From positions 1 through 25,671 of the forward strand of contig CAZUFC010000112.1 of assembly GCA_964619725.1 (NCBI GenBank): a stretch of DNA of 25,671 bases. The letters are read 5' to 3'. This document shows positions 10,047 through 25,671 of the stretch, piece by piece; the first letter of the stretch is position 1, and each line of letters begins with the position of its first letter. The stretch comes from an uncultured bacterium (GTDB lineage: Bacteria > CSSED10-310 > CAZUFC01). Under the pieces are notes generated by a model. That model had not been told where the DNA came from. It searched no databases and saw nothing but the letters and a program-made list of their open reading frames with translations. The translations under genes were made by a program, and so were the position numbers.

Positions 10047-11017
10047 ATTCCTTTACCTCCCAGGAAAGTCGAACTTCTTATGCCAACAAGAACATCGCCT
10101 TCCGGTCTGTACGAAGGCACGTAATCCACGTTCGGCAAATACCAGACGTTTAAATACTCAATATAAGCAAAAATTTTTGTGGATTTTAAATTTACAGGAG
10201 TCCGACCTTCGTATAGGTTGAATCTCAAACCCGGTCCGTACTTAATGAAATTATTGAAATCAACGTCGTTCCAAGCGCATTCCTGGTAAGCATCCCATTT
10301 CAGTTCCGTTCTGTAATACAAGGAGAAACTTTTATATTGCATGCCCGCTGACGGCGAGAATCCCAGAATGCTGAAATTTTCCTTCTCCTTTACGAAAAAA
10401 TTAGTTCTCGAATAGGAGAATCCGATCGAAATTTCCAACCACCAGTTTCTCCAGGATAATTTTTGTTTTTCATGCCTCCCTTTTAAAAATATCCAGGATT
10501 CAAATCCGTACTTTACATCATAATCCGGCCGGTGACCCGTATAGCTCTCAACATTCGGTAAATAATCGATCTTCAGATATTCGGCAAAAACATTTGTCGT
10601 GAATGTTTCCAGTCTCCTGACAGGTTTTGACGCAATCTGCAACCGTACTCCTCCCCCATAAACAATATTGTTGTTCCAATCATTGTCGTTCCACGGTTCG
10701 TTCGTCCCGAAATCCTTTATTACTTTGAATTTTACGTATGGATTGAACGAGGCATTAATGGAGCTTTTTCCTTTCGGAAATGTCGTCAACTTCATGCCCG
10801 CCTGCATTTCTATCTTTCCCAGAAAATAATCCTCATAATCCTCCACGTAAAAATCGTTCCGGCTCCAACCTAAGTCGGTCTCTATTTCCCACCACCATTG
10901 TTCGTGTATTTTCAGTCCGGACATTGTTTCCTCTGCTTGCAGCGTCGAAATTATCAGGGGATGAAGGCAAATGAATATAATTAAGACAAGTTTTGTTCTT
11001 AAATGATTCATCAACAT
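10043..11017 (-). CDS. Putative outer-membrane beta-barrel protein with a two-fold internal repeat
   Basis: AAGGAGG RBS before ATG 11017; signal peptide ending LQA|EE; alternating aromatic/hydrophobic strands; halves share WWxEI, WNDxDxNNxIxYGxGxR, EYLxxxYLPNV and RPxxDVxxG. It lacks a terminal Phe, so the barrel call is inferential. Confidence 0.62.
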   Translation of the reverse strand: MLMNHLRTKLVLIIFICLHPLIISTLQAEETMSGLKIHEQWWWEIETDLGWSRNDFYVEDYEDYFLGKIEMQAGMKLTTFPKGKSSINASFNPYVKFKVIKDFGTNEPWNDNDWNNNIVYGGGVRLQIASKPVRRLETFTTNVFAEYLKIDYLPNVESYTGHRPDYDVKYGFESWIFLKGRHEKQKLSWRNWWLEISIGFSYSRTNFFVKEKENFSILGFSPSAGMQYKSFSLYYRTELKWDAYQECAWNDVDFNNFIKYGPGLRFNLYEGRTPVNLKSTKIFAYIEYLNVWYLPNVDYVPSYRPEGDVLVGIRSSTFLGGKGI

Positions 11018-11281
11018 GCGATTCCTCCTTAATTGACCGATCATGACTGACCGAAATTTACTTAATTTATTGAAGACTTTGAAATCAATCACGTTTTTCG
11101 AAATTTTCATATCTGAGTCCACCGAGAGAAAAAATTATAAAAATGATCTCTATGCCGGCTCTGTGATTCTCAGAATCAAAAAATTTAATCTCCTTAGAAA
11201 AAAAATTCCTACTTTTTTGGTGTTGATAACCGTTCACCAAAATACACATGCTCGAACAGATTACAAAATTTTTCCTCTTCT

Positions 11282-11310
11282 AAAATAAACATTAAATTTT
11301 TGTTTGTCAA
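11282..11310 (-). promoter_or_regulatory. Candidate sigma70 promoter for the leftward barrel/lipoprotein operon
   Basis: Minus strand TTGACA (11310-11305) - 17 bp - TATTTT (11287-11282); the AT-rich context weakens the call. Confidence 0.4.
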
Positions 11311-11480
11311 CAATTTGAATTTTTGTCTTAGCGCTTCATTCATGGTGGTGATTTTCAATTCATCCAGCTTCTTCAGGCATATGATCGGAAATTCATTCAA
11401 TCAACAAAGCGAACCTGACTCGCGCAAAATATGAGATGCCGTAAGCGAAATTAATTTCACCCGAATAGGGAAAATATCAT

Positions 11481-11508
11481 TTGACAAAAGTCCCATTGCA
11501 TGAATAAT
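11481..11508 (+). promoter_or_regulatory. Candidate sigma70 promoter for the SBP-CHAT operon
   Basis: TTGACA (11481-11486) - 16 bp - AATAAT (11503-11508); GGAGGAG RBS before ATG 11654. Confidence 0.4.
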
Positions 11509-11653
11509 CGTATATTGAGAATAATAGTACCCGTTAATCTGTGAAAAGCAAGGGCTATGAAGAAGAAAATTTTTCGTTAAAGTAATTTGCAAAAGAGGGA
11601 TTTGCGTTGATTCATTATAATTTTCACAGAGAATAATTGGAGGAGAAAAATAA

Positions 11654-14428
11654 ATGAGCGGTGTCAGAACCTTTCAAAAGTTATCGGCCATAACGCTATT
11701 GATTTTAAGTTGCCTAAATGTCGCAAATGCGGGTGAAGATAACGGGCTGATTATCTGGATACCGCCTAATGAGATAGAGTATTTCAAAGGCGCGGCGGGA
11801 CGAGATGAAATTTTTCCTGAACCCGGAGAAATAGAATCATTTTTCAGAGATGTCCATAAATTTTTCAAAGAAAAGCATGATATAGATTTGTCTATTCAGA
11901 TAAGATTGAGTGATGTCTGTAAAAAAGCATTGCAAGATGAGCATTTTGCCCGTCAGGTTTTAGGGCAGAAAATGATTTTTCAAGAAATTAACAAATTCAT
12001 TCAGGATTACGATTACAAAAGGATTATTGAGATCAGATTCTTCGATTGGGAAGAACTGCTTGAAATTCTGGAAAACATGGCTTTGGGCGAAGATAATGAA
12101 CTGCCTCACCTTATTGCCGCTCCATCCACCTGGATAGCTCATCTGGCTTCAAAAGGAGTTCTCATACCCATCGAAGCCGACAGAGAAAATTATGTCGAAC
12201 AATCATTGGAAACATGCATGGTCAAACGTTTTTTTTTGAAATGCAATGATTGCAATTACTTTGCGAAAAGAATCTTCAGAATATTCGGAGCGGATTACGG
12301 CAAGAGTACGGTATACGCCCTTCCATTCTACGTCGACGTGCGCTTTTTCTACTATTGGAAATCTCTTTTTCCCGACAGAAAGTTTGATAACAGAGGAATA
12401 TTTGAAGAAATATTGAATAGCGTCGTGAAAAAACAGCGTAATGAAGAAAAAGTTATTCCGCCGCTATGCATTTCTACGGAAATGGACTGGGATTTGTTGC
12501 ACTTCTTCAGTCTCGTGCTCTGGGGGGCAGGCGGAGATTGGAACGAATTCCCGGCTTTTTTACAAGAGGAACCATCCGATGATGCAGTTGATTCTTTAAA
12601 CAGGCTTCATGGGAATAATGACCTTCAAAAAGCCTGTTATTTACGTGAAAAACGATCCACTATTGAAAATCGTTTCCTCAAAAAGGAATTCGGCAGTATG
12701 ATAACCGGTCTGTGGATGCTGGCCAAATTGAAACATCAGCTTGGAGAAAATTGGAACGAACAGGTCGGAATCGAATTGCCCCCTTTTAATGTCAATGGTC
12801 CTAAGAAAACGTTTATAGGCGGTTTGCATCTCGCTCTTTCGCCGCGTGCAGAAAATAACGAATATGCTGTAGAGTTCATAAAGTTTCTCACGACGGAATC
12901 TGTTCAACGTCATTCTCAAGACATATTCATTATTCCGGGCGATAAAAAAGCATTCGATGACATTCCCGACACGCCTGTAAACCGAATATTGAAGCAGGGA
13001 GTTAAAAACTCAAAATATTATCCGCGTTTCGAAGAGTGGGCATCAATTGAATCGGAATTAACCCGTAATCAACTATTTTGTCTTTTTAAACACATTTCTG
13101 AAGGACAGAAAGAACTCAGCAAACAGGATATCGAAGCGGTGCAAGGATATTTCGGATACCTTGGTCGAAAAATATATTTTACGCCTCTTATTCCCTTTTT
13201 GGCGATTTTGATTTTTGTCATTCTGGCAATCACGGTGAGGTGGTGGTATTACGGATCTAAACGACGGCTGAAAAAAATAATATCAAAGATCAACCCCAAG
13301 TATAAAAATTTTACGGTTACAATCGATTGTCCCTTCGAAAAAGAGAAAAAAATCTATAAGACGGCTTTTATCAAACGATCTAGGGGATGGGCGAATAATA
13401 CCGTAAAAGAAACAGTGAATTTGAATTCACAGACATTCACACTTCTTCGGCAATATGCTGCTGATAGGGCAAATTTAAGTAACATCCAGACAAGCGAACT
13501 GAAAAAATTCGGTAACCTTCTTGCCGAGATCGCTTTGCCGGGTAAAATATTCTACGAATTTAACGAAAAAATAAGACAAATTCAGAAAAAGCGCAAAAAA
13601 TTGCGCCTGCGTCTCAATATTGAGTGCGACGAACTGCGTGAGCTTCCCTGGGAATATTTATATTTCAATCCGGATGAATTGAAACCAGGAAAATTGCGCA
13701 AGTCGGAATGGATGCGGAAAGTGTTCCTGGGCCTGAATCCCGATGTTTCCATAGTGAGATTCCCCGAGTTTGGTACAAAAAAAGTTAAAGGGTTTACCAG
13801 AAAATTAAAAATACTGATCGTAATTTCCAATCCTGCTGCAGGAAGATGGGTCGATCTCGCTAACGCTGAAAAAGAAGAGGATATTATTAGAACAGCTTTC
13901 AGTAAAAAAAGGAAGGTGTCCATAGAGACCCTTAAAAAATGTGGGAATCAGCTCGTAACTGCACAAAATCTCCTCCAAACAATACAATCATATAAACCAG
14001 ATATCATTCACTTGATCATGCACGGATGCCCCAGGAATGACCCTGATGTTCAAGAAGATTCTTTGGTGATGGAAAGTCAAACTGCTCTTCAGTATGAGTA
14101 TTTTTCTTTGGAGACGTTTCTGAATAGAGTCAGAGAAGCTCATGTAAAGATGCTTGTCTTTTCTGCATGTTATATAGGAGGTTCTGAACTCCTTTCCACG
14201 GATACTAATGAAATACCGTTAATCATCGGCAGCCGGTTCGAGTTGCCGGAAAACTGCGGGCTCATCTTCACCAAAGCGTTTTACGAAGCGTTTTCAGATC
14301 ATCTTTACCTGGATGAATGCATATCTTCAGGAAGGCAATACCTGTATGCAGACCAGATTGATGAATTGCCCGTATGGGGACATATCAACTTTTACTGCAA
14401 CAGCAATAAAAATTTTCTTTGGATATGA
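11654..14428 (+). CDS. Extracytoplasmic sugar solute-binding domain - TM helix - cytoplasmic CHAT (caspase-like) protease fusion
   Basis: Signal peptide ..NVANA|GED. Sugar-SBP motifs IEIRFFDWEEL, LPHLIAAPSTWIAHLASKGVLIPI, VYALPFYVDVRFFYYWKSLF, TFIGGLHLAL, AVEFIKFLT. TM helix at ~13172-13251. CHAT motifs LRLRLNI..ELPWEYL, LKILIVISNP, PDIIHLIMHG (His790), MLVFSAC (Cys839), FTKAFYEA. Confidence 0.88.
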   Translation: MSGVRTFQKLSAITLLILSCLNVANAGEDNGLIIWIPPNEIEYFKGAAGRDEIFPEPGEIESFFRDVHKFFKEKHDIDLSIQIRLSDVCKKALQDEHFARQVLGQKMIFQEINKFIQDYDYKRIIEIRFFDWEELLEILENMALGEDNELPHLIAAPSTWIAHLASKGVLIPIEADRENYVEQSLETCMVKRFFLKCNDCNYFAKRIFRIFGADYGKSTVYALPFYVDVRFFYYWKSLFPDRKFDNRGIFEEILNSVVKKQRNEEKVIPPLCISTEMDWDLLHFFSLVLWGAGGDWNEFPAFLQEEPSDDAVDSLNRLHGNNDLQKACYLREKRSTIENRFLKKEFGSMITGLWMLAKLKHQLGENWNEQVGIELPPFNVNGPKKTFIGGLHLALSPRAENNEYAVEFIKFLTTESVQRHSQDIFIIPGDKKAFDDIPDTPVNRILKQGVKNSKYYPRFEEWASIESELTRNQLFCLFKHISEGQKELSKQDIEAVQGYFGYLGRKIYFTPLIPFLAILIFVILAITVRWWYYGSKRRLKKIISKINPKYKNFTVTIDCPFEKEKKIYKTAFIKRSRGWANNTVKETVNLNSQTFTLLRQYAADRANLSNIQTSELKKFGNLLAEIALPGKIFYEFNEKIRQIQKKRKKLRLRLNIECDELRELPWEYLYFNPDELKPGKLRKSEWMRKVFLGLNPDVSIVRFPEFGTKKVKGFTRKLKILIVISNPAAGRWVDLANAEKEEDIIRTAFSKKRKVSIETLKKCGNQLVTAQNLLQTIQSYKPDIIHLIMHGCPRNDPDVQEDSLVMESQTALQYEYFSLETFLNRVREAHVKMLVFSACYIGGSELLSTDTNEIPLIIGSRFELPENCGLIFTKAFYEAFSDHLYLDECISSGRQYLYADQIDELPVWGHINFYCNSNKNFLWI

Positions 14429-14509
14429 CGAATTTGTTTAAGGCAAATAAATAGACATATGACTCACGACGAGTCCCAACAATTTTTAAGCGAATAGAGA
14501 GGTGCAGAA

Positions 14510-16456
14510 ATGTTCAATTCTATAAGAGTTAAAAAAATGTGTTTTGTCCCGCTCCTGTTGACCGCCTTTTTGGGTTGTGCGGCAAAAACCGAGCCAGCAA
14601 TTAAAAAAACAAATGGAAGAAACTCCGACGCAGAAAATTCAAAAGCTGTAATGGAGAAATCCCCGGAAGAAAAAGGATATGCCCATCTAAACGAGGTCAT
14701 GGATAAGCATCAGGAAAAGTTCTACGTATACCTGGACGGATACGAGGCCGGAAACCGGTTCATCCCTTCGGGTTGGATGGGCGACTACGGAGATATTATT
14801 TTCGATGAAGCCTGGACCAAAAATCCTCATTCCGGAAGCTCCTGCACGATGATCACCTACCTGGCGGAGGGTTATCAGAAAGAGTATTGGGCCGGCATAT
14901 ACTGGCAATCGCAAAATGATAACTGGGGCGAACAGCCGGGATATCCCCTGCAAGATGCAGATAAAGTGATATTCTGGGCCAGAGGCGCTCACGGAGGCGA
15001 GCGAATAGAGTTTAAAGCCGGAGGCATCAACCGACCTCCATATAATAATGACGAGAAACCATACAGTGATTCCTTCGGACCGGTCAGCACAGGCATAACA
15101 ACGTTAAGAAAAAAATGGACTCGATACGAAATAGACCTTTCTAAAGAAAACCTTAATTCAGTCATAGGAGGGTTCTGCTGGGTTACGAACAAAAGAGAAA
15201 ATCCGAAGGGCTGCACGTTTTATCTTGATGACGTTTACTACAATAAGTCGAACCTGGATGAATTAAGGTTTCTGGTCAGTTATGAACTGCCGTCGATACC
15301 CGAATACAAAGCCCTCAAAAACGTGGCGTTTGTATACGATAATGCACTGGTCATTCTGGCGTTCTTAGCGCGTGGAACGAAAGAAGATATTCGCAGGGCC
15401 GCCTTATTGGCCGATGCAGCCGTGTACGCTCAAAGAAACGACCGTTTTTTCTGCGAAGAAAAATACGACGGAAGATTGAGGAATGCCTACAGGGCGGGTC
15501 CGCTAGTCGATCCCTTCAGTAAAGAAGCTCTGCTGCCGGGTTGGATGGATAGGGCGGATGAGAAATGGTACGAGGATAAATTTAACGTTTCTACGCATAC
15601 GGGAAACGTCGCCTGGATGATGATCGCATTGCTGGATTATTATGATGCGAGCAGAAATGAAAAATACCTTGCGGCTGCAGAACAAATGGGAAAGTGGATT
15701 CATCAGAATTGTTTCGATGATTACGGATTCGCCGGATATACGGGCGGTTATGAAGGTTGGGAACCGGACGAAAATAATCCGGAAGGCCAGGAAAAATTGC
15801 TGTGGAAATCTACAGAACACAACATTGACGTCTATGTCGCTTTTATGCGTTTGTTTCAACAGACCGGCGATTCCAAATGGAAAGAATGGGCCCTGCATGC
15901 AAAAAAATTCGTGGAGTCGATGTGGAACCATGAAGACGGCCATTTTTGGACGGGGACTCAGAAAAAATGCGCTGAAACAACCGAATACGTTAATAAGGGG
16001 CCTATTCCGTTAGACGTTAATACCTGGGCTGTTATGGCGCTTGGAAACGTCAGTAAATACGGCAGGGGAATTGAATTTATCGAAAAAAAATGCAAGGTGA
16101 CCGATTCTTCTGAAGAATCCTGTCAGGGTTACAAGGGATTCGATTTCAACGACGATAAAGACGGAATCTGGTTTGAAGGTACAGCCCAGGCATGCATAGC
16201 CTACCAGATAATGAATGACGATCAAATCGCGGATAATTACCTCGACCAACTGAGAAAAGTCCAGAAAGAGGCAAAATACGGCAATGGGAAAGGAATTATT
16301 GCCGCCTGCAAGGAAGACCTTACCACTGGTTTCGATTGGATATATTTCGACCGGCTGCATATAGGCGCCACAGCATGGTTTCTCCTGGCCGAACAAGAGT
16401 ATAATCCTTACTGGGGTATAAAAACTGATTCGCCCATCCCCTTTGAAGATTTGTAA
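14510..16456 (+). CDS. Lipoprotein: CBM-like N-terminal domain + (alpha/alpha)6 six-hairpin glycosidase-like domain
   Basis: Lipobox FLGC (Cys23). N-domain FIPSGWMGD..WAGIYWQ..NWG..FWARGAHGGERIEFKAGG..FYLDDVYY resembles the N-domain of the GH-A protein. Helical barrel motifs YDNALVILAFL, TGNVAWMMIALL, KSTEHNID, PLDVNTWA, DGIWFEGTAQ. Confidence 0.78.
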   Translation: MFNSIRVKKMCFVPLLLTAFLGCAAKTEPAIKKTNGRNSDAENSKAVMEKSPEEKGYAHLNEVMDKHQEKFYVYLDGYEAGNRFIPSGWMGDYGDIIFDEAWTKNPHSGSSCTMITYLAEGYQKEYWAGIYWQSQNDNWGEQPGYPLQDADKVIFWARGAHGGERIEFKAGGINRPPYNNDEKPYSDSFGPVSTGITTLRKKWTRYEIDLSKENLNSVIGGFCWVTNKRENPKGCTFYLDDVYYNKSNLDELRFLVSYELPSIPEYKALKNVAFVYDNALVILAFLARGTKEDIRRAALLADAAVYAQRNDRFFCEEKYDGRLRNAYRAGPLVDPFSKEALLPGWMDRADEKWYEDKFNVSTHTGNVAWMMIALLDYYDASRNEKYLAAAEQMGKWIHQNCFDDYGFAGYTGGYEGWEPDENNPEGQEKLLWKSTEHNIDVYVAFMRLFQQTGDSKWKEWALHAKKFVESMWNHEDGHFWTGTQKKCAETTEYVNKGPIPLDVNTWAVMALGNVSKYGRGIEFIEKKCKVTDSSEESCQGYKGFDFNDDKDGIWFEGTAQACIAYQIMNDDQIADNYLDQLRKVQKEAKYGNGKGIIAACKEDLTTGFDWIYFDRLHIGATAWFLLAEQEYNPYWGIKTDSPIPFEDL

Positions 16457-16479
16457 GACAACTTAACAAGTATCGCCTG

Positions 16480-17772
16480 TCAGGGAGAAAAGAACAGGCC
16501 GGTTCCAGGATGACCGAAAAGCTGATAAGCCAGCCAGGTCGGATCATTTTCATCATGGAAAAACCTGTTTTTGATTTCCTGCCGTGCTTGGCGCATCGCT
16601 CTTCCCACGGGTTGATCATGCAGGACGAGGGACTCATACAACTTTTTAGCGAAGTAAAAAGCCGAATGGTCCCTCGGCGTCCATGCATGACCGATAAATA
16701 TCTCAGCGCCTGCCTTCATAAACAAAGGCGCCCACCCGGTTATCCCGCTTAATCCATACCCATGCCGCGACGAATGCGGACAATTCATGAATATCATGGG
16801 TCCTTTAAGCGACGAATCCTTGCAGAACTTTTTACATAGCTTCATCTTCAATGAAAGAGGTTTGACGCAACTCATCACTGCCTCATCAAAAACCAGCGGC
16901 GTCAAATCATCCAGGACGTCCGTGGCGACATTATGGGCCGCAATATGCAATACGTCGAAATCCCATTCATCAATTATCCTGTGAAAATGATCCTTGTCTT
17001 TCACTCTTATTATTTCAAGAGGTTTTTCCGAAAGCTTTGATTTCTTACGGAATATTTCTGTAATCATCTCCGCTTCCGTGATTTCACCCACCTCATCATC
17101 AATTACACTGAAATTAGTCATTTTCGGCTGAACGATCACTACTCTCTCCACGCTTATCCGATTATGATCGGATGCCCGGCTGCAGGGCTGCCTTGCTGCT
17201 GATGAAATTTCGGGCAAAAAACGCCCCTCATGGAAAAGAAGTTCAAAGGGTACAAAAGGATCATTTATGCGGTAAAGCATATCATCGCTGTTTCTTCCGA
17301 AAAGATATTCCTTCTCCGAACCGCTGAGAAGCATATCGGTAAAATCACTCAAAATGCCGCTCAGATCGTCAGCCATATCAGGCTCAATCCTCTCTGCGTA
17401 ACGACTCATGCATTGAAGAAGTTCGCGCCCAATTTTCGCTATGTCAAAAGGGAAATCCTTCTCATAAAACTTTTCGGTGCCGCTGCCGATTAATCCGGTC
17501 CGCATTTCGACTCTGCTTCCCGAAGATTTTCTGAAATGACGAAAATCGGCCATATGCGTATCACTACCGGTTAAGCCAGAATCCGACTGTAATAATGATC
17601 CGCATCCTTTCGCTTCTTCATCATTCCTTTCATCAACTAAATCGAGCGTTGGACGCTCAAACCCCTCATTATCCATATCATGCAAAGCGCAAGAAGCGCA
17701 TGCTCCCTTTTTTCGATTCCAATTTACGGCTTGATTCATAATGAGTTTACCGCTTTTCGTCGTCTGGTTCAT
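16480..17772 (-). CDS. Cytoplasmic CHAT-domain protein with a non-canonical active site
   Basis: GGGAGG RBS; PFVPFELL, FDVLHIAAHN, MIFMNCPHS, GWAPLFMKAGAEIFIGHAWTPRDHSAFYFAKKLYESL, VGRAMRQAR, DPTWLAYQLFGHP (typical CHAT C-terminus). Confidence 0.88.
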   Translation of the reverse strand: MNQTTKSGKLIMNQAVNWNRKKGACASCALHDMDNEGFERPTLDLVDERNDEEAKGCGSLLQSDSGLTGSDTHMADFRHFRKSSGSRVEMRTGLIGSGTEKFYEKDFPFDIAKIGRELLQCMSRYAERIEPDMADDLSGILSDFTDMLLSGSEKEYLFGRNSDDMLYRINDPFVPFELLFHEGRFLPEISSAARQPCSRASDHNRISVERVVIVQPKMTNFSVIDDEVGEITEAEMITEIFRKKSKLSEKPLEIIRVKDKDHFHRIIDEWDFDVLHIAAHNVATDVLDDLTPLVFDEAVMSCVKPLSLKMKLCKKFCKDSSLKGPMIFMNCPHSSRHGYGLSGITGWAPLFMKAGAEIFIGHAWTPRDHSAFYFAKKLYESLVLHDQPVGRAMRQARQEIKNRFFHDENDPTWLAYQLFGHPGTGLFFSP

Positions 17773-18092
17773 GAGTTCCTCCCGAAAAGTGCCATCCTCT
17801 CTTCTACATTATTAGAAGCGGGATTCTCTAAATATTTCAGAAAGGCAGCGGAATCTGGCGGGATGAGCATTCAGTTCAGCAAAAAGGACAACGGCGAGTT
17901 GCAGCTTACATTGCAGTAGACGGATGACTGCGTTTCCGTTAATTCAGCGCCGGTGCGTCCTTAAAATTTCCGAAAGTATTATACCCTGTTAAAAGGAAGT
18001 TTCCTTGAGTCATCTTCGGCTAAGAGGCTTCGACTTTCAGGTCTTTATTGTCATGACCAGAATGATCAAGAAGGGTGCCCGCAGTATCCTCG

Positions 18093-20318
18093 TTATACGG
18101 GTATTTCAGACGCCAGGGCTTTCTGCGCGGCCGTTTTCATGTCGCCTGCTCCGGCCAGGGTGACTTCAGAAGGCAATCTCAAAAGTATGGTTGGCGCAAC
18201 CACAACAGAAAAATCTCTAACTTTCTCAGTTCGCCAGTAACCCTTTTCACGGATCGATTTCTCGATGGCTTTTCTCAATTCATGACGTATATTTTTTTCC
18301 TCTTCCATAGTCGAGACAGTCCTTAATTTCATCTCAGAAACTTTAAGTTTCGCATATTCCTTGGCGAAAAGGAGCAGCTGGTACATAGATTGCTTTGACA
18401 ATACAAGAGACCAGTCGCTTGTTCGATTAGCCCTCCTGTATAGGGCTTCAGGTACCGCTGAACTTGATAGAAGCATGGCTTGACGGTGGCGCTGAAGCTT
18501 TATTTCTTCCTTATCCGTTTCTTTTTCGCCAGGTTTGTCTGTTCTGTTTTTTGTAATCAGAATATCTAAACCCGGATCATGAACAAATACAGATGGAACA
18601 TCCAGCTTCTTGGCCAGGTGTTTTGCTCTCAGATAAACACCTATATTGCGTTCTCCCGGTTTAGGCGATATCCAAATGCTATAGGGTGATCCGTATTCGC
18701 TTGTTATCTGGTAAAGGTCCTGTCTGTTGATGCCGATTCCCTTAAGTTTTCCTTTCTGAAAAATGGGTTGTAAATTATCCAGCGTTTTTCCGTCCAGGAA
18801 CTTTGAAATCTCAAAACGCGTGTTGGCGCCCGCATCAGCCAACGCTTTTAGTTGATTAGTCAACGCCTCCCGCAACAATGACGTCAGCTTTTCGTTGAAT
18901 ACAATTTTTCCCATTTGATCTATTCCTCCCAACATGGCCGATCTCATCTGCTCCGCAAACGGTTTCAGTTCATCGTAATTCACCAATTCGATCGATATGA
19001 TTTCTTCCGCTGCATCGTATTCGTATTCATGCTGAAAAAGGTAAAATATCGGCCAGAATTCGCTGTTCGACCATAAAGGATCGGATATACTGCTTTTATC
19101 CGTTTCAACATACCAGCATGATGCATCATTATCCCAATCAGGCGAATTCTGCTTATCGGACCATCTGTAGTTTTTATCCGCCTTCCAACAGACTCTGATC
19201 TTTTTCCAGGGCTTCGCAGGATCGACAAAAGGCTCCGGCTTTACAAAAATAACCCGGTCCGCAGAAAGACGGTCCTGCTCGATTACTTTATGCAAATTCA
19301 AACGAGGCCATAACCCGTTTTCAGACATCAAATTCATCACAAAACTCGCTCTTCGAGGATCGCCGCTTTTGCCGGATGCCTTTGCAGACTCTATGTGACC
19401 TCCTTCCTGGTTGAATATGAGTCTTTCGGCGCAATCAGGGAATATTGCAGCCTGTTTACTGCTGTGATAGGGAATGTGCACCAGCGTTTTAAATCCCATT
19501 TGCCTGTAAAGGTATGCCTGATTTCCCGCAGCGCCTCCCAATGTCTTGAATACCTTTATAAATTCACCGACATATCTTTTCAAGACGGTTTCCATTTGCT
19601 CACTTTTATTTCCGAATTTATCTTCTGAAAAAGAAGTTTCGGAAATTTGATTCTCAAATATGATGTGAAGCAAATCCTGCAGTTTCTTATCACCTATATG
19701 CGGGTTTAATCCTTCACGCCTCATCAAGCAGATTATACAGGCAAGCAGGTCTATTCCATCAAGAACGCTTTTGTCCAGAGGCTCCTCGTCACTGTTCAAA
19801 GATGCTGCCGCCCTTTTTTCAGCTTCCCGGTAAACATCCTCCGGCTTTAGTCCTTCCCACGCTGGAATAATCTCAACTAAAAAATTCATCACATCTTGAG
19901 TCAATCTTATGCTCAAATCTTCAACCGCTGAAAATCCGCAAAATCGGTACTTATCGTCGAGTTTGTAATTTATCGCTGCATACAGGTATCTGTGCCAATC
20001 TATTAGTTTTTTGGCGTCCTCCAGTTTTTCGGGAATTACTTGCTTCAGTTCCTCTATCCACCAGAATGACGATCTCAAAAGAGTTTCTAAATAATCAATA
20101 AATAAATCAGGAAGATCGTCAGGATTCAGCGCGCGCTTCAGGCATTCGTGAATTTCTTCGTTTATATTCGATTGGTCGATTTCGTGGAATAAAAGGAAAT
20201 TCTTAACCAACTCGTAACGCTTATTCAGCAATCCGCGCTCATTAACTTTCTTCTTAAATTTCTCATTCATATGCTCATTCGCTTCACATCCCTTTTCTTC
20301 TCTATATTTATTGACCAT
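18093..20318 (-). CDS. ADP-dependent glucokinase/phosphofructokinase-like protein (ribokinase superfamily), enlarged and divergent
   Basis: LGGAAGNQA (GG motif), GIGINRQDL (NxxE position), VVAPT..TLAGAGD (anion hole/catalytic Asp) near the C-terminus. Start moved to ATG 20318, which has a GGAGG RBS. Confidence 0.72.
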   Translation of the reverse strand: MVNKYREEKGCEANEHMNEKFKKKVNERGLLNKRYELVKNFLLFHEIDQSNINEEIHECLKRALNPDDLPDLFIDYLETLLRSSFWWIEELKQVIPEKLEDAKKLIDWHRYLYAAINYKLDDKYRFCGFSAVEDLSIRLTQDVMNFLVEIIPAWEGLKPEDVYREAEKRAAASLNSDEEPLDKSVLDGIDLLACIICLMRREGLNPHIGDKKLQDLLHIIFENQISETSFSEDKFGNKSEQMETVLKRYVGEFIKVFKTLGGAAGNQAYLYRQMGFKTLVHIPYHSSKQAAIFPDCAERLIFNQEGGHIESAKASGKSGDPRRASFVMNLMSENGLWPRLNLHKVIEQDRLSADRVIFVKPEPFVDPAKPWKKIRVCWKADKNYRWSDKQNSPDWDNDASCWYVETDKSSISDPLWSNSEFWPIFYLFQHEYEYDAAEEIISIELVNYDELKPFAEQMRSAMLGGIDQMGKIVFNEKLTSLLREALTNQLKALADAGANTRFEISKFLDGKTLDNLQPIFQKGKLKGIGINRQDLYQITSEYGSPYSIWISPKPGERNIGVYLRAKHLAKKLDVPSVFVHDPGLDILITKNRTDKPGEKETDKEEIKLQRHRQAMLLSSSAVPEALYRRANRTSDWSLVLSKQSMYQLLLFAKEYAKLKVSEMKLRTVSTMEEEKNIRHELRKAIEKSIREKGYWRTEKVRDFSVVVAPTILLRLPSEVTLAGAGDMKTAAQKALASEIPV

Positions 20319-20379
20319 CCCTTCCTCCCTGTGCCGGTTATAACTCAATAAAGCATCAATAGACGGTTTTTAAAAAAAA

Positions 20380-21111
20380 CTACTCCTCCGTCTCAAAAGG
20401 CTGAACAGCTCTCCTGGCCGAAATCCTTAAATTTTCCGAGGCCTCCTCATCTTTAATGATGCTCTTCAACGTATTCAGTATCTTCTTCGCATCCGCACTT
20501 AATCGCGACTTACGACCGCCTCTGGTTCGTACCGAACCGCGCGTCCGGATAACTCCGCCCGTCGGAATTGTCGACCTTGCCGACATATCGGCCAAATCAC
20601 CCAACGCCTCTATCGCTGAATATCTTATTCCCTCAGTGGGGCCGTTCTTTGCGTAATCCTGTAAAATTCCGACTGCCTTCGGTCCGCCTATCCTTCTTAA
20701 AGAATCTATTGCCGCTGATATTACATCTTCATCATAGGTCTCTAGCTGTCCTGCGCCCATTCTACTTTTTATATCCTCTAATGCCGTTCCTATAATCGAT
20801 ACAGACTTCTCATCGCCCCACTCTCCCAGAGCTGAAATCACTTCCTTCTTTACCTCCGGACCCCTCTTATCCAAAGCTTCCAATACCGTTTCCATCGCCT
20901 CTTCCTCCATGTCCGAAGGAAAACGGCTCCCCGCAGGCTGATTGATCGTTCCCCTCGTCCTTATCGAACCTCTTGTCCTTATGCCGTGATAACCTAATCG
21001 CGATGCAGCGCTTGCAGCCTTCTCATCCGTCTTGCTCCTTCTCAACCTTTCCAGCCACATTTTTATCTCATAACGGTCAACTTGTTCATTGGAATTATTT
21101 TGTGTTACCAT
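20380..21111 (-). CDS. HEAT-repeat protein with four [IV]RTRG motifs
   Basis: HEAT/PBS-lyase-like repeats EVKKEVISALGEWGD, VISAAIDSLRRIGGPKAV, IRYSAIEALGDL; IRTRGSIRTRG and IRTRGSVRTRG; AAGGAG RBS before ATG 21111. Confidence 0.88.
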   Translation of the reverse strand: MVTQNNSNEQVDRYEIKMWLERLRRSKTDEKAASAASRLGYHGIRTRGSIRTRGTINQPAGSRFPSDMEEEAMETVLEALDKRGPEVKKEVISALGEWGDEKSVSIIGTALEDIKSRMGAGQLETYDEDVISAAIDSLRRIGGPKAVGILQDYAKNGPTEGIRYSAIEALGDLADMSARSTIPTGGVIRTRGSVRTRGGRKSRLSADAKKILNTLKSIIKDEEASENLRISARRAVQPFETEE

Positions 21112-21324
21112 TAAATTTTCTCCTTTCCAGTTTTTCAAATTTAACTTAAGTCCTTTGACTTCGATCTGTCAACATTTTTTTGACCGGCGAAGCCCTATCG
21201 AATTCTTACATCAATTTGCTCAATCATTTAAAATGATTTTCACGTTAATCTCCTTTACGATGTTTTCGTTTTTACTCTTTTCAACGTCCTTCCTTTTCTT
21301 CGCCCGACGCCTCCCTTAAAGCGT

Positions 21325-21344
21325 TAAACATATAGACGTCTATA
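21325..21344. promoter_or_regulatory. Putative operator: perfect 14-bp palindrome TATAGACGTCTATA plus a shared 15-mer
   Basis: Palindrome 21331-21344 lies immediately downstream of the minus-strand -10 box. TAAACATATAGACGT (21325-21339) recurs with one mismatch at 23501-23515. Confidence 0.62.
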
Positions 21345-21372
21345 ATTATATCTCTTTTTGAGTGAATGTCAA
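21345..21372 (-). promoter_or_regulatory. Consensus sigma70 promoter for the HEAT - kinase (- CHAT) genes
   Basis: Minus strand TTGACA (21372-21367) - 16 bp - TATAAT (21350-21345); both hexamers are perfect. Confidence 0.72.
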
Positions 21373-21650
21373 GCAGAAAATCTTTTTTCCGCCGCAACGT
21401 CGAATCGTCGAACCGGTCCGCTTCCATGCGGGATAGGATTCAGTTTTGGAATTGCCGCCGTAATGAAATTTTTACGATTCGCTGCATCTGAAGTATTGAG
21501 GAGAAATTCCGGCATTGGACAGCGGGATTTTTCGATAAAGGCTTAAAAGGTGCGTAACATTGGGAGAAAAAGTGATTTACCAATTTATGCCGTTTGGAAA
21601 TACAAAAAAATGGAAATATGGAAATAATGAAAGAAAGGAGTGCGGAAATA

Positions 21651-23249
21651 ATGTTTAAAGTAATGGCCGGCATAGAGTCGGAATATGCGTTTGCGTCTGA
21701 AGGACATGCCGGGAAGGGGCATTCTAGAGAGAAGGCATTGAGTTCATTTTTTGAGGCAGCGCGGCGCAAATGGAAATATTTACCGGATATGGAAGGGAAG
21801 GGGATATTTCTGGGAAACGCATCTTATCTTTATCTGGATGCGGGATTGCACGTGGAGCTGTCCACGCCTGAGTGTCTGAATCCTTATGACGTCGTAAAGT
21901 ATAAGCTGGCGGGCGAAAGGATAATCGAACAAACGGCCGCCGAACTGATTAGGGCATATCCTGATATAAAGGAGGCGCTGTTTTTCAAATGCAATGTGGA
22001 TTACAACGAGGAGTCTGCGTCCACCTGGGGATGCCACGAATCTTACATGTACCGGACCGATTTCACGACCCTGAGCGCTCAGTTGCTCCCTCATCTTGTC
22101 AGCCGGATAATTTATACGGGCGCCGGCGGATGGCATCCTTTTTCGATGGGGGCTGAATTCCTGATTTCGCCGCGGGCGGCTCACCTGGACTACGTTCAGT
22201 CCAGCAACAGCACATCCAACCGCGGCATTATTCATCTGAAAAACGAGCCCTGGGCCAAAAAAGGTTATAAACGCCTTCATCTGATTTGCGGAGAAAGTTT
22301 ATGCTCGGAAACCGCGTCCTTTCTGAAAATCGGGACCACCATGCTGATCATAACCCTGATAGAGGCAGGATTCTATCCCGGCGATGCTGCAGGCCTCAGC
22401 AATCCCCTGGCCTCCCTCAATCTTTTCAACCGGGATACCGATTGCGACAAGCCCGTCCCCACACTCTCCGGCAATTATCTCACCGCAGTCCAGATTCAAC
22501 GGCTATACCTTCAGGCAGCGGAAAAAAATATCCATAAACCTTTCATGCCGGTCTGGGCCGAACATCTGTGCCGGAAATGGAGAGAAGTCCTCGACAAAAT
22601 TGAAAACAGGGATTTCGATTCACTCGCTTTGATGCTGGACTGGCCCATGAAACGGCAACTTTTCCGAAAATACATGAAAAAGAAAGGCTTGAACTGGTAC
22701 AAGGTCAGCCGACTTAATGAAATCGTGAAAAGATACGGCAATAACGAAACCGCAAAAAAACAAAAACAGAAAAATAATCCCCAAAGGCAAAAATTGAATT
22801 TCCTGAAAGACCTTCTCATTGCCGGCGCCAAAAATATCTCCATAAATAAATTGAATGAATTCCTCGCATTCAGAGCAGAACTCTTCGAAATAGACTGGCG
22901 GTTCAGTCAAATCGGCGAAAACAGCATCTTCGCCGCACTGGATCGCTCAGGCTCCCTGAAACACCATGTGACGGGTATCGACAACATCGAACGCGCCGTT
23001 AAAAATCCTCCGCTGCAGGGCAGAGCAAGAATACGAGGCAATTGCATCAAAGAATTCGCAAAACAAAACGACGGATTTCGATGCCATTGGGACAGAATAT
23101 TCGATTATAACCGGAACCGAATGATGGACCTCTCCGATCCATACGAATTCACCAGAAGATGGGGCACGATCAAACAAAACAGTTGCGACGAATCAAACCT
23201 CCTCGCCATCCAAAACCTGGCCGCCCGACTCAGACTAAACCGAAGATAA
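21651..23249 (+). CDS. pafA: Pup-protein ligase (PafA/PafA2) family protein
   Basis: GIESEY, FLGNASYLYLDAGLHVELSTPEC, FKCNVD, WGCHESY, LVSRIIYTGAG, ISPRA, NRGII..EP, KRLHLICGES, FLKIGTT, LDWPMK, PP..RARIRG, DLSDPY. The short spacer after GxExE (no Dop loop) and DxGxH favour a ligase over Dop. AAGGAG RBS before ATG 21651. The symbol denotes the family, not proven orthology. Confidence 0.88.
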   Translation: MFKVMAGIESEYAFASEGHAGKGHSREKALSSFFEAARRKWKYLPDMEGKGIFLGNASYLYLDAGLHVELSTPECLNPYDVVKYKLAGERIIEQTAAELIRAYPDIKEALFFKCNVDYNEESASTWGCHESYMYRTDFTTLSAQLLPHLVSRIIYTGAGGWHPFSMGAEFLISPRAAHLDYVQSSNSTSNRGIIHLKNEPWAKKGYKRLHLICGESLCSETASFLKIGTTMLIITLIEAGFYPGDAAGLSNPLASLNLFNRDTDCDKPVPTLSGNYLTAVQIQRLYLQAAEKNIHKPFMPVWAEHLCRKWREVLDKIENRDFDSLALMLDWPMKRQLFRKYMKKKGLNWYKVSRLNEIVKRYGNNETAKKQKQKNNPQRQKLNFLKDLLIAGAKNISINKLNEFLAFRAELFEIDWRFSQIGENSIFAALDRSGSLKHHVTGIDNIERAVKNPPLQGRARIRGNCIKEFAKQNDGFRCHWDRIFDYNRNRMMDLSDPYEFTRRWGTIKQNSCDESNLLAIQNLAARLRLNRR

Positions 23250-23469
23250 TCACAGCCTGAACGGATTCTTATGAAAACTACGACGGCGATCATCGAAGAT
23301 TATTATACCGGCGCAACCCTTCTGCCGTCATCTTGCGACGCATGCACGCGCCGCTGGACAGGGCTCTCCTGGTCAAACCGATACACGGTTCAATTCTCTG
23401 CCGATTGCTTCCCTCCCGCTTACCCCGCACGTTTCATGAAAAAAAATTCAAAAAAATTCGCTTTTACTG

Positions 23470-23498
23470 TTGCAATTCGCGAAAACCCCGGTTATAAT
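23470..23498 (+). promoter_or_regulatory. Sigma70 promoter upstream of the small ORF and sigma-factor gene
   Basis: TTGCAA (23470-23475) - 17 bp - TATAAT (23493-23498), with an A-tract UP-like region upstream. Confidence 0.7.
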
Positions 23499-23500
23499 AA

Positions 23501-23515
23501 TAAACGTATAGACGT
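23501..23515. promoter_or_regulatory. Putative operator over the predicted transcription start
   Basis: TAAACGTATAGACGT is 14/15 identical to 21325-21339; contains GTATAGAC and overlaps the dyad AACGT-N4-ACGTT. Confidence 0.55.
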
Positions 23516-23580
23516 TCAAACCTTTTGGGGACGTCCCGAGTGAAAAGAGATGCCCGTTATCGCAAATGAAAGGAAAACCG

Positions 23581-23847
23581 ATGAAAAAAAACAATAACCG
23601 GGAAAGCCTTGAAATTCGATACGCGGACAGCCATGGAACCGCAGCGGATACGGCGCTGAAGCCGGATGAGCGTGCCGCGGCGAGAGCAGATAATCCATTG
23701 GAAATCTCGAAATTTCATCCGGGCGCAACGGGGACCGCCTGTGCTGATGCTTGCGGAGGGAGGTTTCCGCAGGATGCGCAGGAGAGTAGAAGCGAAGAGG
23801 ATTTCAAAATTAAAATCATTGTTATTGTAAGGAGAGACAAAATATGA
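23581..23847 (+). CDS. Small hypothetical protein (88 aa), possibly translationally coupled to the sigma factor
   Basis: AAAGGA RBS, downstream of a good promoter, ATGA overlap with 23844; no recognisable domain. Confidence 0.35.
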   Translation: MKKNNNRESLEIRYADSHGTAADTALKPDERAAARADNPLEISKFHPGATGTACADACGGRFPQDAQESRSEEDFKIKIIVIVRRDKI

Positions 23848-25355
23848 GCTGCGTTGAAATATCGAGAAGTTGGAAATGCGCCGGTTTTGAGGAGCGGGAA
23901 ACAGGCCGTTACGCAGATATTGCCGTGCCGTCCAGGCCTGAGAATTTGCTTTGCAAGTCGGCCAAACCGCCGGAGAATATTTTGTTAAATACCGTGAAGC
24001 CGGCCGGGAGGCCCGGATCGGCATCGGAGTTTATCGAAAGGTGCGGGGACGGGAGCGAGGGGATTTGCGAGGACAAGGCAGGGAAAATAATAGAGGAAAA
24101 GATGAGAGAAAGATGGGGAAGATCAGCGCCGGATATTGTGGAAGAGTCGTTGAAAAGGTTATTGCCTTATGTGAATTCAGCTTTCAAGGAGACCAGCGTG
24201 ATAACCGGGAAAGGCAAGAATAACTTTCTGCTGAATGAGCAGACGAAAGCGATCGTATGTGCGTGCTGGAACGAGAGTCATGGCGCAGATTATGTGAAAA
24301 TGTTGCTGAATGACCTGGCGAGGCTTAATAAGACCATTGTAGACACGACGGAACTGGAGGACTTTTATTCCCGGCCGGAACGTATAATCGATTCATACGT
24401 AAGATGGGGCGAGCAGGTTGAGCTCATCCGCCGGCGTGATCCGCCGTCGCAGTTCATCAAATCGATCATAGCGCCGTTCGTCAGTAAGAACGAAAAAAAA
24501 TGGCAGAAGGACTGGGATGAAGGGGGAATGACGAAGGCTGACTTCATAAGAACGGCAGTCGGCTGGATATGCGGAAGGATCAATGAATATCGATATGAGA
24601 TCGATTTCAGATACTGGGCGGAGGCTGTCGTCAAAGATTGCATAAAGCAGTTGAAAAACTGCAGGAAATGTCAGGAGCTGGTGGATTCCATAGCGAACAG
24701 GAGTTTGAGCTGCAAAGACCGGCTGCGGATAGAGAAAAACATCAGGAACTGGTGCAGGTCAAGGGGTTGGACAGACATTCTGAAAAAAGAGGGAATGGAG
24801 GAGACAGATTTCATCAACACGTTATGGGAGAGATTATTTGAAAAAATACACACGTTTAAATATCGCAGCAACCTGGATTCATGGATATACTCCATAGCAT
24901 CGAATTACGTGAGGGGTTTGCTGCGCGGCAAAAAAACGAAGCCCAAAATACTGACGCGAACCAAACCGAATCCGCATGAAGAGACCGAAAAAATGATAAT
25001 TAATGAAATCGAAGACACGTCAAGCCTGTCCGCAGATCGAATGACCGAGCTACAGGAGATTTTCCGCAGAGTCAAAGAAAGAACCGAAGATTCAAAGGCA
25101 AGAAACAGGAAGGAACAGGAAAAAATAGAGGTATTGCTGAAAAGGTTCGTGGAAGGCAAAAAATACAAGGAAATCCAGAAGGAAACCGGGGTCCCCAAAG
25201 GCACAGTAGCGACCTGGATTAAACGGGCCAAAGACCGCTTCAAAGAAAACGAACGAATAAAAGACGGATCACTAATCGAATACCTCAAGATAATTTATGA
25301 AGATTACATCCTTCCCCTATACCTGGAAACATGCCCGGAAGAAAACGGCCGCTGA
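23844..25355 (+). CDS. ECF-like sigma70-family factor with a long N-terminal extension and tandem sigma2-like domains
   Basis: Region 2: DFINTLWERLFEKIHTFKYRSNLDSWIYSIASNYVRGLLR. Region 4 HTH: EVLLKRFVEGKKYKEIQKETGVPKGTVATWIKRAKDRF. TAAGGAG RBS. Confidence 0.85.
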   Translation: MSCVEISRSWKCAGFEERETGRYADIAVPSRPENLLCKSAKPPENILLNTVKPAGRPGSASEFIERCGDGSEGICEDKAGKIIEEKMRERWGRSAPDIVEESLKRLLPYVNSAFKETSVITGKGKNNFLLNEQTKAIVCACWNESHGADYVKMLLNDLARLNKTIVDTTELEDFYSRPERIIDSYVRWGEQVELIRRRDPPSQFIKSIIAPFVSKNEKKWQKDWDEGGMTKADFIRTAVGWICGRINEYRYEIDFRYWAEAVVKDCIKQLKNCRKCQELVDSIANRSLSCKDRLRIEKNIRNWCRSRGWTDILKKEGMEETDFINTLWERLFEKIHTFKYRSNLDSWIYSIASNYVRGLLRGKKTKPKILTRTKPNPHEETEKMIINEIEDTSSLSADRMTELQEIFRRVKERTEDSKARNRKEQEKIEVLLKRFVEGKKYKEIQKETGVPKGTVATWIKRAKDRFKENERIKDGSLIEYLKIIYEDYILPLYLETCPEENGR

Positions 25356-25671
25356 TTTTTTTGACATAATGGGAACTGTCTAATTAGTTACAATCGCTTG
25401 ACATTAATTAATATTTCTGATTTTATTTGAATGCGATACGATTGGAGAATGCGAAATGTCTAAAAATCAGAAATTTCTTCTTGAAGAAGACGGATTAAAA
25501 AAGTTACGTCCATTTGGCTTTAAAGCTGGTATAATCAATGTTAACAGACAATCGTAGCTGTAACGGAAGATATAAGAATAAATGAATAAAGGAAGTTGAA
25601 GGATTTGGAAATGTTCAAATTCACATCTCCTGACATTCGCTAATAAAAAATTGTGAAATGTTTGACGAAAA

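Follow-up and report, generated by a model that had tools for sequence, protein, structure and literature searches.

Do the genes in the right-hand part of a 25,671-nucleotide contig from an uncultured bacterium (GTDB lineage CSSED10-310; CAZUFC01) form a single signalling pathway, or is the locus put together from parts of different origin? The window that we analysed is this entire contig (CAZUFC010000112.1 of assembly GCA_964619725.1, here C112), which belongs to a genome bin, G000, of 9.17 Mb in 344 contigs with 90.86% completeness and 6.5% estimated contamination; 13 other genomes formed the same-phylum comparison set. An initial annotation had listed six genes between positions 11,654 and 25,355, encoding a receptor fused to a CHAT protease, a second CHAT protease (CHAT2), a kinase-like protein, a HEAT repeat protein with RTRG motifs, a PafA-like ligase and a sigma factor, and had read them as a CRISPR-independent proteolytic system triggered by an extracellular sugar. 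Family scans on the verified contig recovered all six genes as listed, although the list had passed over a 648-aa lipoprotein encoded between the two CHAT genes (14510-16456). We regard the observation as confirmed and its interpretation as partly supported. In the reading that we favour, to which we assign a probability of about 0.5, the span would be a mosaic in which a HEAT-kinase-CHAT2 unit (unit B, 16480-21372) is wired to a ligase-sigma unit (unit C, 21651-25355) that extends onto a second contig of the bin, C195, while a sugar receptor protease and the lipoprotein (unit A, 11654-16456) stand apart. Gene identities, synteny, motif distribution and promoter placement are shown here, whereas every biochemical step of this reading is inferred from sequence.

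A HEAT repeat protein and a sugar-kinase-fold enzyme form a recurrent gene pair

The initial annotation was right that a kinase-like gene is present, but its product is, judged by profile and motif matches, an enzyme of the sugar-kinase fold (ribokinase superfamily) and not a protein kinase; no Pkinase match was found with Pfam. The protein, recorded in a 741-aa form (P0001) whose start is probably the true one, scores 22.1 bits against Pfam ADP_PFK_GK (PF04587; gathering cut-off 27), and its homologues in two other genomes, at loci L003 and L004, score 36.2 and 42.9 bits. A profile of the family matches solved ADP-dependent phosphofructo- and glucokinases (ADP-PFK 6c8z, E 1.5e-7), and the nearest neighbours in the ESM Atlas are ADP_PFK_GK clusters (score 0.93). 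Five homologues preserve four motifs, GGAxxN, NxxE/D-L, VH[DG] and AGAGD, with little or no variation, and residues G261-G262, N531 and G723-A724-G725-D726, invariant in five kinase-like sequences, align to 6c8z at what we take to be the catalytic motifs of ADP-dependent sugar kinases (GG, NxxE and the C-terminal GxGD with its catalytic Asp). The family shares with these enzymes (PF04587; 6c8z, 1l2l, 1ua4) both fold and motif order, from an N-terminal sugar-binding Asp region through GG and NxxE to GxGD, but differs from them in its length (630-940 aa), in its large insertions and additional N-terminal region, in its constant pairing with an RTRG-HEAT protein and in its neighbourhoods, which are of the Hsp70/STAND/CHAT type and not glycolytic.

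The partner protein consists of approximately three PBS-lyase-type HEAT repeats with the motif [IV]RTRGx[IV]RTRG on either side and a C-terminal Glu. Both the tandem RTRG and the terminal Glu are present in all six family members, whose C-termini read ETEE, HLEE, PLAE, SQE, PLTE and GLGE.

The HEAT and kinase genes are adjacent and co-oriented at four of four loci, namely the window, a metagenome contig (L002), a Pirellulaceae metagenome-assembled genome (MAG; L003) and a Rhodothermales MAG (L004), and in all three foreign loci the HEAT gene lies directly 5' of the kinase-like gene. Such loci are scarce. An index of 5.8 billion proteins holds, besides the window's own proteins, a single relative of the kinase (P0002, 45% identity) and a single relative of the HEAT protein (P0006, 40% identity), and in 185,579 species genomes a kinase-pattern scan returned no locus and a HEAT-pattern scan two. 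The pair is absent from the 40 other genomes of a 41-genome set (13 of the same phylum and 27 from elsewhere in the domain), in which G000 alone matched, and in the phylum of G401, the genome that carries L003, one of 401 genomes has it, which is G401 itself. This rare and patchy distribution fits that of a mobile accessory cassette.

What surrounds the pair differs from locus to locus. Within 10 kb of all three foreign loci we found no SBP-CHAT gene, no Pup ligase gene, no CHAT2 orthologue and no long sigma factor; L004 has just an unrelated CHAT-FGE gene. The comparison across genomes thus gives no support to a single glycan-triggered system of six genes. At L002, genes for GrpE and two Hsp70 proteins lie upstream and one for a STAND NTPase with TPR repeats downstream; positions 9250-17557 hold tandem HEAT-kinase cassettes, the second of which is rearranged and encodes a short HEAT protein, a 294-aa protein without assignment and a 938-aa kinase-like protein. 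This set looks like a conflict-type locus. The neighbours at L003 are housekeeping genes, and those at L004 encode a ClpB-like ATPase, a Ser/Thr kinase, an Hsp70, a GAF histidine kinase, a response regulator and the CHAT-FGE protein. Prediction of a kinase-HEAT complex scored 0.00 in both runs (alignments A4 and A5), which were made without controls and count neither way, and literature searches on the HEAT(RTRG)/ribokinase-fold pair or on the RTRG motif found no relevant paper. Recurring in four distant lineages, often amid Hsp70, STAND and CHAT genes, the pair is a candidate two-gene module. We consider this cassette, together with its RTRG link to an anti-sigma factor, to be the novel part of the locus, its function being predicted from sequence.

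The tandem RTRG motif recurs in a candidate anti-sigma factor on a second contig

An unexpected lead favours the proposal that the HEAT protein is tied to sigma factor control. A six-frame scan of G000 (18.3 million residues) for tandem RTRG gave three matches, two in the HEAT protein and one in P0279, a 299-aa protein encoded on C195. There, an open reading frame (ORF) for Pup is followed by the gene for an extracytoplasmic function (ECF)-type sigma factor, P0280 (274 aa), and then by that for P0279, whose start overlaps the sigma stop by 4 nt. P0279 contains two HxxxCxxC motifs, and its RTRG linker reads GVIRTTGAIRTRGAVRTRG. Its neighbours in the ESM Atlas are zf-HC2 clusters (score 0.96), 92-96% of whose members carry zf-HC2; Pfam returned no zf-HC2 match for P0279 itself at E 0.05 or better. 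With its two HxxxCxxC motifs and a gene coupled to a sigma gene, P0279 is classed here as a ZAS-type zinc-finger anti-sigma factor. We also note that its linker is a triple RTRG and that a beta-sandwich-like domain forms its C-terminus.

The RTRG stretches of the HEAT protein and P0279 use different codons and are therefore not a recent DNA copy of one another. A back-translated degenerate DNA pattern for tandem RTRG matched G000 three times against none for its control, and in 400 other genomes it matched four times against 11 for the control, which is chance level. By length share, we estimate at about 1 in 800 the chance that the sole other tandem-RTRG protein of the genome would fall on the 11.6-kb contig that also encodes the partners of the window's ligase. 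Because of the RTRG motif in P0279 and the operator-like site described next, we take the right half of the span and C195 as one putative regulatory network. A signature motif of the HEAT pair that in this genome recurs only in an anti-sigma factor beside a Pup operon also gives a testable handle on function.

Separately, a 94-codon stop-to-stop frame in G401 (G401:C64:37333-37361; L040 9177-9461, minus strand) encodes PTRGVRTRGAVRTRG; G401 is also the genome with the L003 pair. We set it aside as a candidate third RTRG gene; it has no clear start codon, and the query proteins matched nothing in the surrounding 19 kb.

An operator-like site is shared by the HEAT and sigma promoters

The initial annotation had drawn attention to an operator-like motif linking the HEAT and sigma promoters, and this was borne out. 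The two copies, TAAACATATAGACGT (21325-21339) and TAAACGTATAGACGT (23501-23515), are identical at 14 of 15 positions (consensus TAAAC[A/G]TATAGACGT), and a search of both strands of the 9.17-Mb genome finds the 14-mer AAACRTATAGACGT here and nowhere else, against about 0.18 occurrences expected from base composition. Both copies lie just downstream of the -10 boxes (within about 20 nt), in the +1 region of strong promoters picked from 29 promoter-like matches in a scan of positions 11000-25671. The core of the palindrome that overlaps the first copy, TATAGACG, has no further copy in the window. Since an unrestricted all-against-all search would yield such pairs at an appreciable rate (see below), the weight of the shared motif rests on promoter placement and genome-wide uniqueness. 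On this footing the case for co-regulation of the two promoters is good but not conclusive. An alternative reading of the motif as an ECF-type promoter (AAC...CGT) was discarded, the elements being only 8 nt apart and both sites lying after sigma-70-type -10 boxes.

The sigma factor finds relatives only through residues ~311-480, for which 13 of 401 genomes match at E 1e-8 or better, all with ordinary ECF sigma factors; its 300-aa N-terminal extension, which might conceivably be an autoinhibitory stretch taken off by a protease, is an orphan with no relatives in the 401 genomes, and an AlphaFold2 single-sequence model of the protein (mean pLDDT 38.2) was too poor for a fold search. Upstream, the 90-aa frame orf90 (23271-23543) was dismissed as a Pup-like gene, having the sigma promoter inside it and no GGQ or GGE end; since that promoter and the operator-like site both fall within it, the frame is unlikely to be a gene.

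The PafA-like gene is probably the detached ligase of a Pup operon on C195

The window's ligase matches solved Dop (E 9e-53) and PafA (E 1e-39) structures. Its scores for the PafA and Dop families are 227.9 and 224.8 bits, both far under the equivalog cut-offs of 551.3 and 492.3, respectively, so that it scores slightly better as PafA and falls short of the PafA equivalog. It has 792 relatives, of which the closest are 40-48% identical to it across more than 90% of its length; none within its own phylum is closer than 36%. In a broad sample of 400 other genomes, three contain the family at E 1e-70 or better, in four copies. Three of these copies adjoin genes for a JAB protein and for an Mpa-like AAA ATPase that has proteasomal OB domains, and the fourth is near a contig end. 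One such locus (L014) runs ThiF, several small proteins, JAB, AAA, a Dop-like second Pup_ligase protein, a 67-aa ORF ending in VGGQ and the orthologue of the window's ligase. In G306, two PafA-like copies are fused to WD40 beta-propellers (L016 8262-10910, 882 aa; L017 1-3549, 1183 aa), which may provide a built-in target-recognition module.

C195 carries the same series of genes apart from the PafA-type one (locus L031, 1-11589): a ThiF/E1 protein, proteins of 179 and 311 aa, a 92-aa ubiquitin-like (Ubl) protein, JAB, AAA, a Dop-like enzyme and a 96-aa Pup ORF ending in QQGGQ (2182-2472), with no PafA-type gene on the contig. The Dop-like enzyme scores 271.5 bits as Dop and 230.6 as PafA, and the AAA protein reaches 257.2 bits for pup_AAA and matches Prot_ATP_ID_OB_C, all of these under the equivalog cut-offs. 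Because orthologues of the window's ligase sit in operons of this type and C195 has the partners without a PafA-type gene, the simplest reading is that the PafA-like gene is the detached ligase of a C195-type Pup-Dop-AAA-JAB-Ubl-E1 operon and not a dedicated part of a CHAT pathway. Relative to the known Pup-Dop-PafA-Mpa system, the components agree (Dop-like enzyme, Pup with GGQ end, AAA protein with OB domains, JAB, Ubl and E1), but the ligase is detached, its gene standing between those for the HEAT protein and the sigma factor, a 20S proteasome gene was not found, and a sigma/anti-sigma pair follows Pup on C195. The operon type also agrees with a remark by Kaur et al. (2020, PMC7159879), who note for Thermofonsia and Planctomycetes that a Ubl tri-ligase system is coupled to Pup conjugation.

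The left half encodes a plausible beta-glucan-fragment receptor protease

The first CHAT protein has a signal peptide, a solute-binding protein (SBP) domain (SBP_bac_8, E 1.4e-12, residues 149-435), a single hydrophobic span at residues ~507-531 and a CHAT domain (E 7.3e-8, residues 658-908), its transmembrane (TM) topology having been read from the sequence and not with a dedicated predictor. The His/Cys dyad is intact in the CHAT domains of both CHAT proteins of the window. The nearest solved relatives of the sensor domain are the CUT1 sugar-binding protein CbpB 7x0i (E 6.4e-15) and the 7c63 series, whose ligands we take to be cello- and beta-gluco-oligosaccharides. In an exhaustive HMMER search of 1.84 billion cluster representatives we found one other SBP-CHAT protein, P0130, of the same architecture and 35% identical; in the 13 same-phylum genomes there is no orthologue. 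The same SBP+TM module is joined to sigma-54-activator AAA+ domains in P0133, P0137 and P0140 and elsewhere to another AAA domain, and its fusion to sigma-54 activators fits a role as a signalling input. Those three proteins would themselves be membrane-anchored one-component sugar sensors, a type of which we know no description.

Among the nearest relatives of the CHAT domain are CHASE2-CHAT proteins, with which, as with other sensor-fused CHAT proteins, the SBP-TM-CHAT protein shares its layout, a ligand-binding domain outside the cytoplasm being joined through a TM span to a cytoplasmic CHAT domain that has the dyad; it differs in that its input is a CUT1-type solute-binding domain instead of CHASE2, a build seen only once more in the search just described. 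It is plausible from this architecture that the protein is a receptor protease that senses beta-glucan fragments, which also fits the GH81 locus that it adjoins. If confirmed, the receptor would show that bacteria can link the binding of a sugar in the periplasm to a caspase-fold protease in the cytoplasm, alongside the fusions of the same sensor to sigma-54 activators. The adjacent lipoprotein has matches to alpha/alpha-toroid families, all under cut-off (GH127 catalytic domain, E 5.2e-5; LANC_like, E 1.3e-3), and comparison with solved structures gave no informative relative; it is probably extracytoplasmic and glycan-related.

The proposed extracellular-sugar input is plausible for the receptor itself, beside the GH81 locus, but is not supported as an input to the genes on the right. 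The initial annotation had cautioned that the two halves, which converge at 16456/16480, could be unrelated neighbours; we found no evidence that ties the SBP-TM-CHAT protein or the left half to the right half, and no motif in common.

CHAT2 and the resemblance to CRISPR-linked CHAT systems

The CHAT2 gene shares the strand of the kinase gene and lies 320 bp downstream of it. Its N-terminal ~170 residues show no recognised fold, its dyad motifs read AAH... and ...MNC, and its AlphaFold2 single-sequence model (mean pLDDT 34.6) was too poor for a fold search. It has no orthologue in the 13 same-phylum genomes and no PADLOC match. The two CHAT domains of the window are not detectably similar by BLASTP (E 2.6 over the CHAT region). 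G000 holds about 14 CHAT genes (18 matches), and by our estimate the chance that some pair of them lies within 5 kb is about 10%.

The systems to which the locus had been likened, Csx29-Csx30-CASP-sigma and the SAVED-CHAT/PCaspase loci, are real. In Craspase (type III-E), TPR-CHAT cuts Csx30 and so releases CASP-sigma, and the window likewise has a CHAT protease and an ECF-type sigma factor in one neighbourhood, with a non-enzymatic helical-repeat protein as a candidate substrate. Unlike Craspase, however, it has no CRISPR array by tandem-repeat search, no Cas domain in the 17 ORFs scanned and no TPR on either CHAT protein by Pfam. The window's sigma factor, with its N-terminal extension, has 53.2 bits as its best NCBIfam score and no CAS_III-E_sigma score (NF041236, cut-off 100), the sigma factor of C195 reaches only 40.1 bits for NF041236, and the HEAT protein travels with a sugar-kinase-fold enzyme and not with a sigma factor.

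In SAVED-CHAT loci, SAVED-CHAT activates PCaspase, which cuts a sigma factor (PCc-sigma), the loci also holding PCi and the Ser/Thr kinase PCk, with a ThiF gene in relatives (10.1101/2023.06.23.546230). The window resembles these in its pair of caspase-fold proteases, its sigma factor and its 'kinase'. By contrast, it has no SAVED domain, its second protease is CHAT (PF12770) and not C14, its kinase is ADP-glucokinase-like and not a Ser/Thr kinase like PCk, and the ThiF gene of G000 is on another contig, inside the Pup/Ubl operon. The right half may possibly work somewhat like Craspase or SAVED-CHAT, but with neither array nor cas gene, TPR, SAVED, C14 or protein kinase, it is not a member of either.

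Weighing the explanations

Under the mosaic reading, unit A would belong to the upstream beta-glucan utilisation locus, with its GH81 enzyme, CBM-repeat protein and TIM-barrel hydrolase, and its receptor would act as a one-component device in which oligosaccharide binding to the periplasmic SBP domain switches on the cytoplasmic CHAT protease, which would then cut some cytoplasmic regulator. Unit B is a rare, patchy two-gene cassette of RTRG-HEAT protein and ADP-glucokinase-fold enzyme, here followed by a stand-alone CHAT protease, and unit C consists of the Pup system's PafA-type ligase and the N-terminally extended ECF-type sigma factor, the other Pup genes being on C195. Units B and C would be wired together through the genome-unique operator at both strong promoters and through the tandem RTRG confined to the HEAT protein and the ZAS-type anti-sigma factor. 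The RTRG stretch would be a docking or processing signal read by unit B, whether by the kinase-fold enzyme, by the HEAT repeats or by CHAT2 cutting next to Arg; the cassette would thereby control the anti-sigma/sigma pair, and Pup tagging together with an AAA unfoldase would dispose of the processed protein. In its most specific form, the proposal makes the tandem RTRG a dedicated docking or processing signal; a rare mobile cassette would read it, control a zinc-finger anti-sigma factor through it and pass that factor on to Pup/AAA degradation. This form we hold to be distinctly unlikely; if true, it would connect the sensing of stress or of an invader to a sigma factor without CRISPR. The target of the sugar-kinase-fold enzyme might then be a protein-borne group, be it the Thr of RTRG or an attached sugar, an activity that would be new for the ribokinase fold.

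Several findings weigh against the mosaic. We know of no ribokinase-fold enzyme that acts on proteins, and no PF00227 match, and with it no 20S proteasome gene, was found in the 90.86% complete G000. CHAT2 does not belong to the conserved part of the cassette: its place is taken at L002 by an unrelated 331-aa gene and at L003 by nothing, and at L004 there is only the non-orthologous CHAT-FGE gene, at a distance of 5 kb and on the opposite strand. Nor is the link between RTRG and Pup general, as G402 has the HEAT-kinase pair and no Pup_ligase match, and G268 and G241 have the Pup operon and no tandem RTRG by the strict pattern. An all-against-all search of 2.8 kb is estimated to give about 0.3 such 15-mer pairs by chance, so the pair of operator-like sites taken alone would not be significant in a search of that unrestricted kind. 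Finally, the B-C link rests on one genome bin of 344 contigs with 6.5% estimated contamination, and C112 and C195, which share no end sequence, could be far apart or, less likely, come from different cells; both tetranucleotide profiles fall within the bin, their distances from its mean ranking in the 82nd to 89th percentile.

An unlikely alternative is that no functional tie exists among units A, B and C and the operon of C195, all of which would be accessory genes, and that the 14-mer and the RTRG of the anti-sigma factor reflect coincidence or unrelated constraints. The chance rate of the 14/15 match, the wealth of lineage-specific genes in the region without orthologues in the 13 same-phylum genomes, and the failure of RTRG and Pup to associate in G268, G241 and G402 would all be expected on these terms; they would leave as accidents the position of both 14-mers within about 20 nt after strong -10 boxes (promoters with 12/12 and 10/12 consensus matches) and nowhere else in 9.17 Mb, the 1 in 800 placement of the other tandem-RTRG protein on the contig of the ligase partners, and a motif whose differing codons exclude a recent DNA copy. 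Less probable still, in our view, is the single CRISPR-independent cascade first proposed, in which sugar would activate SBP-CHAT and SBP-CHAT in turn CHAT2, which would cut the RTRG-HEAT protein and so release or activate the sigma factor, with kinase and ligase as accessory modifiers. All its parts are adjacent on one verified contig, the receptor build of its first protein holds, and the operator common to the HEAT and sigma promoters and the RTRG of an anti-sigma factor would suit it, as would the two-protease cascade with sigma factor and kinase that is documented in the PCaspase preprint (10.1101/2023.06.23.546230). Against it stand the convergent halves without a common motif, the absence of SBP-CHAT, Pup ligase or this sigma factor from all three other HEAT-kinase loci and the separate, widely conserved operon type that is home to the PafA-like gene; in addition, the only other SBP-CHAT protein, P0130, has no placed genome context, the fold of the kinase is not that of a protein kinase, and the CHAT domains are unrelated beyond family level in a genome where, with about 14 CHAT genes, a nearby pair is not rare.

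Least probable of all is that the HEAT protein itself is a Pup-like modifier or carrier, the C-terminal Glu of which the PafA-type enzyme would ligate to a lysine or other amine, with the kinase-fold enzyme acting on a tethered group. Pup ligases (PafA) use the side-chain carboxylate of a C-terminal Glu, six of six HEAT family members end in Glu despite differing preceding residues, and the ligase gene is divergently adjacent to the HEAT gene; yet a canonical Pup ending in GGQ is encoded on C195 and beside the orthologous ligase in L014, G402 manages its HEAT-kinase pair with no Pup_ligase match, and a ligase gene is missing within 10 kb at each of the three foreign loci.

Features and neighbourhood of the window

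Features of the window, with coordinates counted from its first nucleotide
Feature	Position	Strand	Evidence
GH81	352-2925	+	ORF listing and family scans
1154-aa protein, internal CBM-like repeats	3118-6582	+	ORF listing and family scans
TIM-barrel hydrolase, 642 aa	6664-8592	-	ORF listing and family scans
Three small genes between TIM-barrel hydrolase and SBP-TM-CHAT		-	ORF listing
SBP-TM-CHAT, putative receptor protease, 924 aa	11654-14428	+	Pfam, sequence features, homologue architecture, dyad alignment
Lipoprotein, 648 aa, lipobox FLGC	14510-16456	+	Sequence features, weak family matches
CHAT2, stand-alone CHAT protease, 430 aa	16480-17772	-	Pfam CHAT (PF12770) E 2.6e-8; dyad alignment
ADP-dependent gluco/phosphofructokinase-like enzyme (ribokinase superfamily), 751 aa	18093-20348	-	Pfam, motifs, profile search
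HEAT(RTRG) protein	20380-21138	-	HEAT_2 E 5.8e-14; two [IV]RTRGS[IV]RTRG copies
Second tandem RTRG motif, RTRGSVRTRG	20518-20547	-	Motif scan
First tandem RTRG motif, RTRGSIRTRG	20950-20979	-	Motif scan
Operator-like site, TAAACATATAGACGT overlapping perfect palindrome TATAGACGTCTATA	21325-21344	.	Directly after -10 box
Sigma-70-type promoter TTGACA-16-TATAAT, HEAT-kinase(-CHAT2) unit	21345-21372	-	12/12 consensus matches
PafA-type Pup ligase homologue, 532 aa from recorded start	21651-23249 (ORF from 21594)	+	Pup_ligase PF03136 E 9e-86; orthologue context
Sigma-70-type promoter TTGCAA-17-TATAAT, orf93-sigma unit	23470-23498	+	10/12 consensus matches
Second operator-like site, TAAACGTATAGACGT	23501-23515	.	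Motif comparison
orf93, candidate gene, 93 aa, stop overlaps sigma start (ATGA), no family match	23566-23847	+	ORF listing
ECF-type sigma factor, 503 aa	23844-25355	+	TIGR02937 53.2 bits (cut-off 42.9), regions 2 and 4 at residues 299-468

The adjacency of these genes is not an assembly artefact, because positions 14914-25646 are covered by a single contig of run X1, the likely source sample, and the convergent junction is bridged by contigs from two further samples of the same study (16247-16794 and 16264-16682). The stretch 16400-25400 is present only in four DNA runs of one microbial mat metagenome study, and no RNA run with it is listed. Rfam gave zero matches in the window, the tandem-repeat search detected no array, and PADLOC matched none of eight window proteins save for a weak generic HEAT-ARM match. 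Over the last 55 bases (25616-25671), contig depth rises about tenfold and loose ends are numerous in all runs; C112 terminates in a repeat.

Two observations concern the upstream glycan locus. The 1154-aa protein contains four tandem copies of a domain (39-50% identity) that also makes up the whole of a 270-aa protein on the opposite strand (9234-10046), and weak CBM30 and CBM11 matches of this domain suggest a family of glycan-binding modules. The C-terminal ~110 residues of the TIM-barrel hydrolase (residues ~531-642) gave well over 100 tblastn matches on dozens of G000 contigs and probably form a secretion or sorting domain common to many exported proteins.

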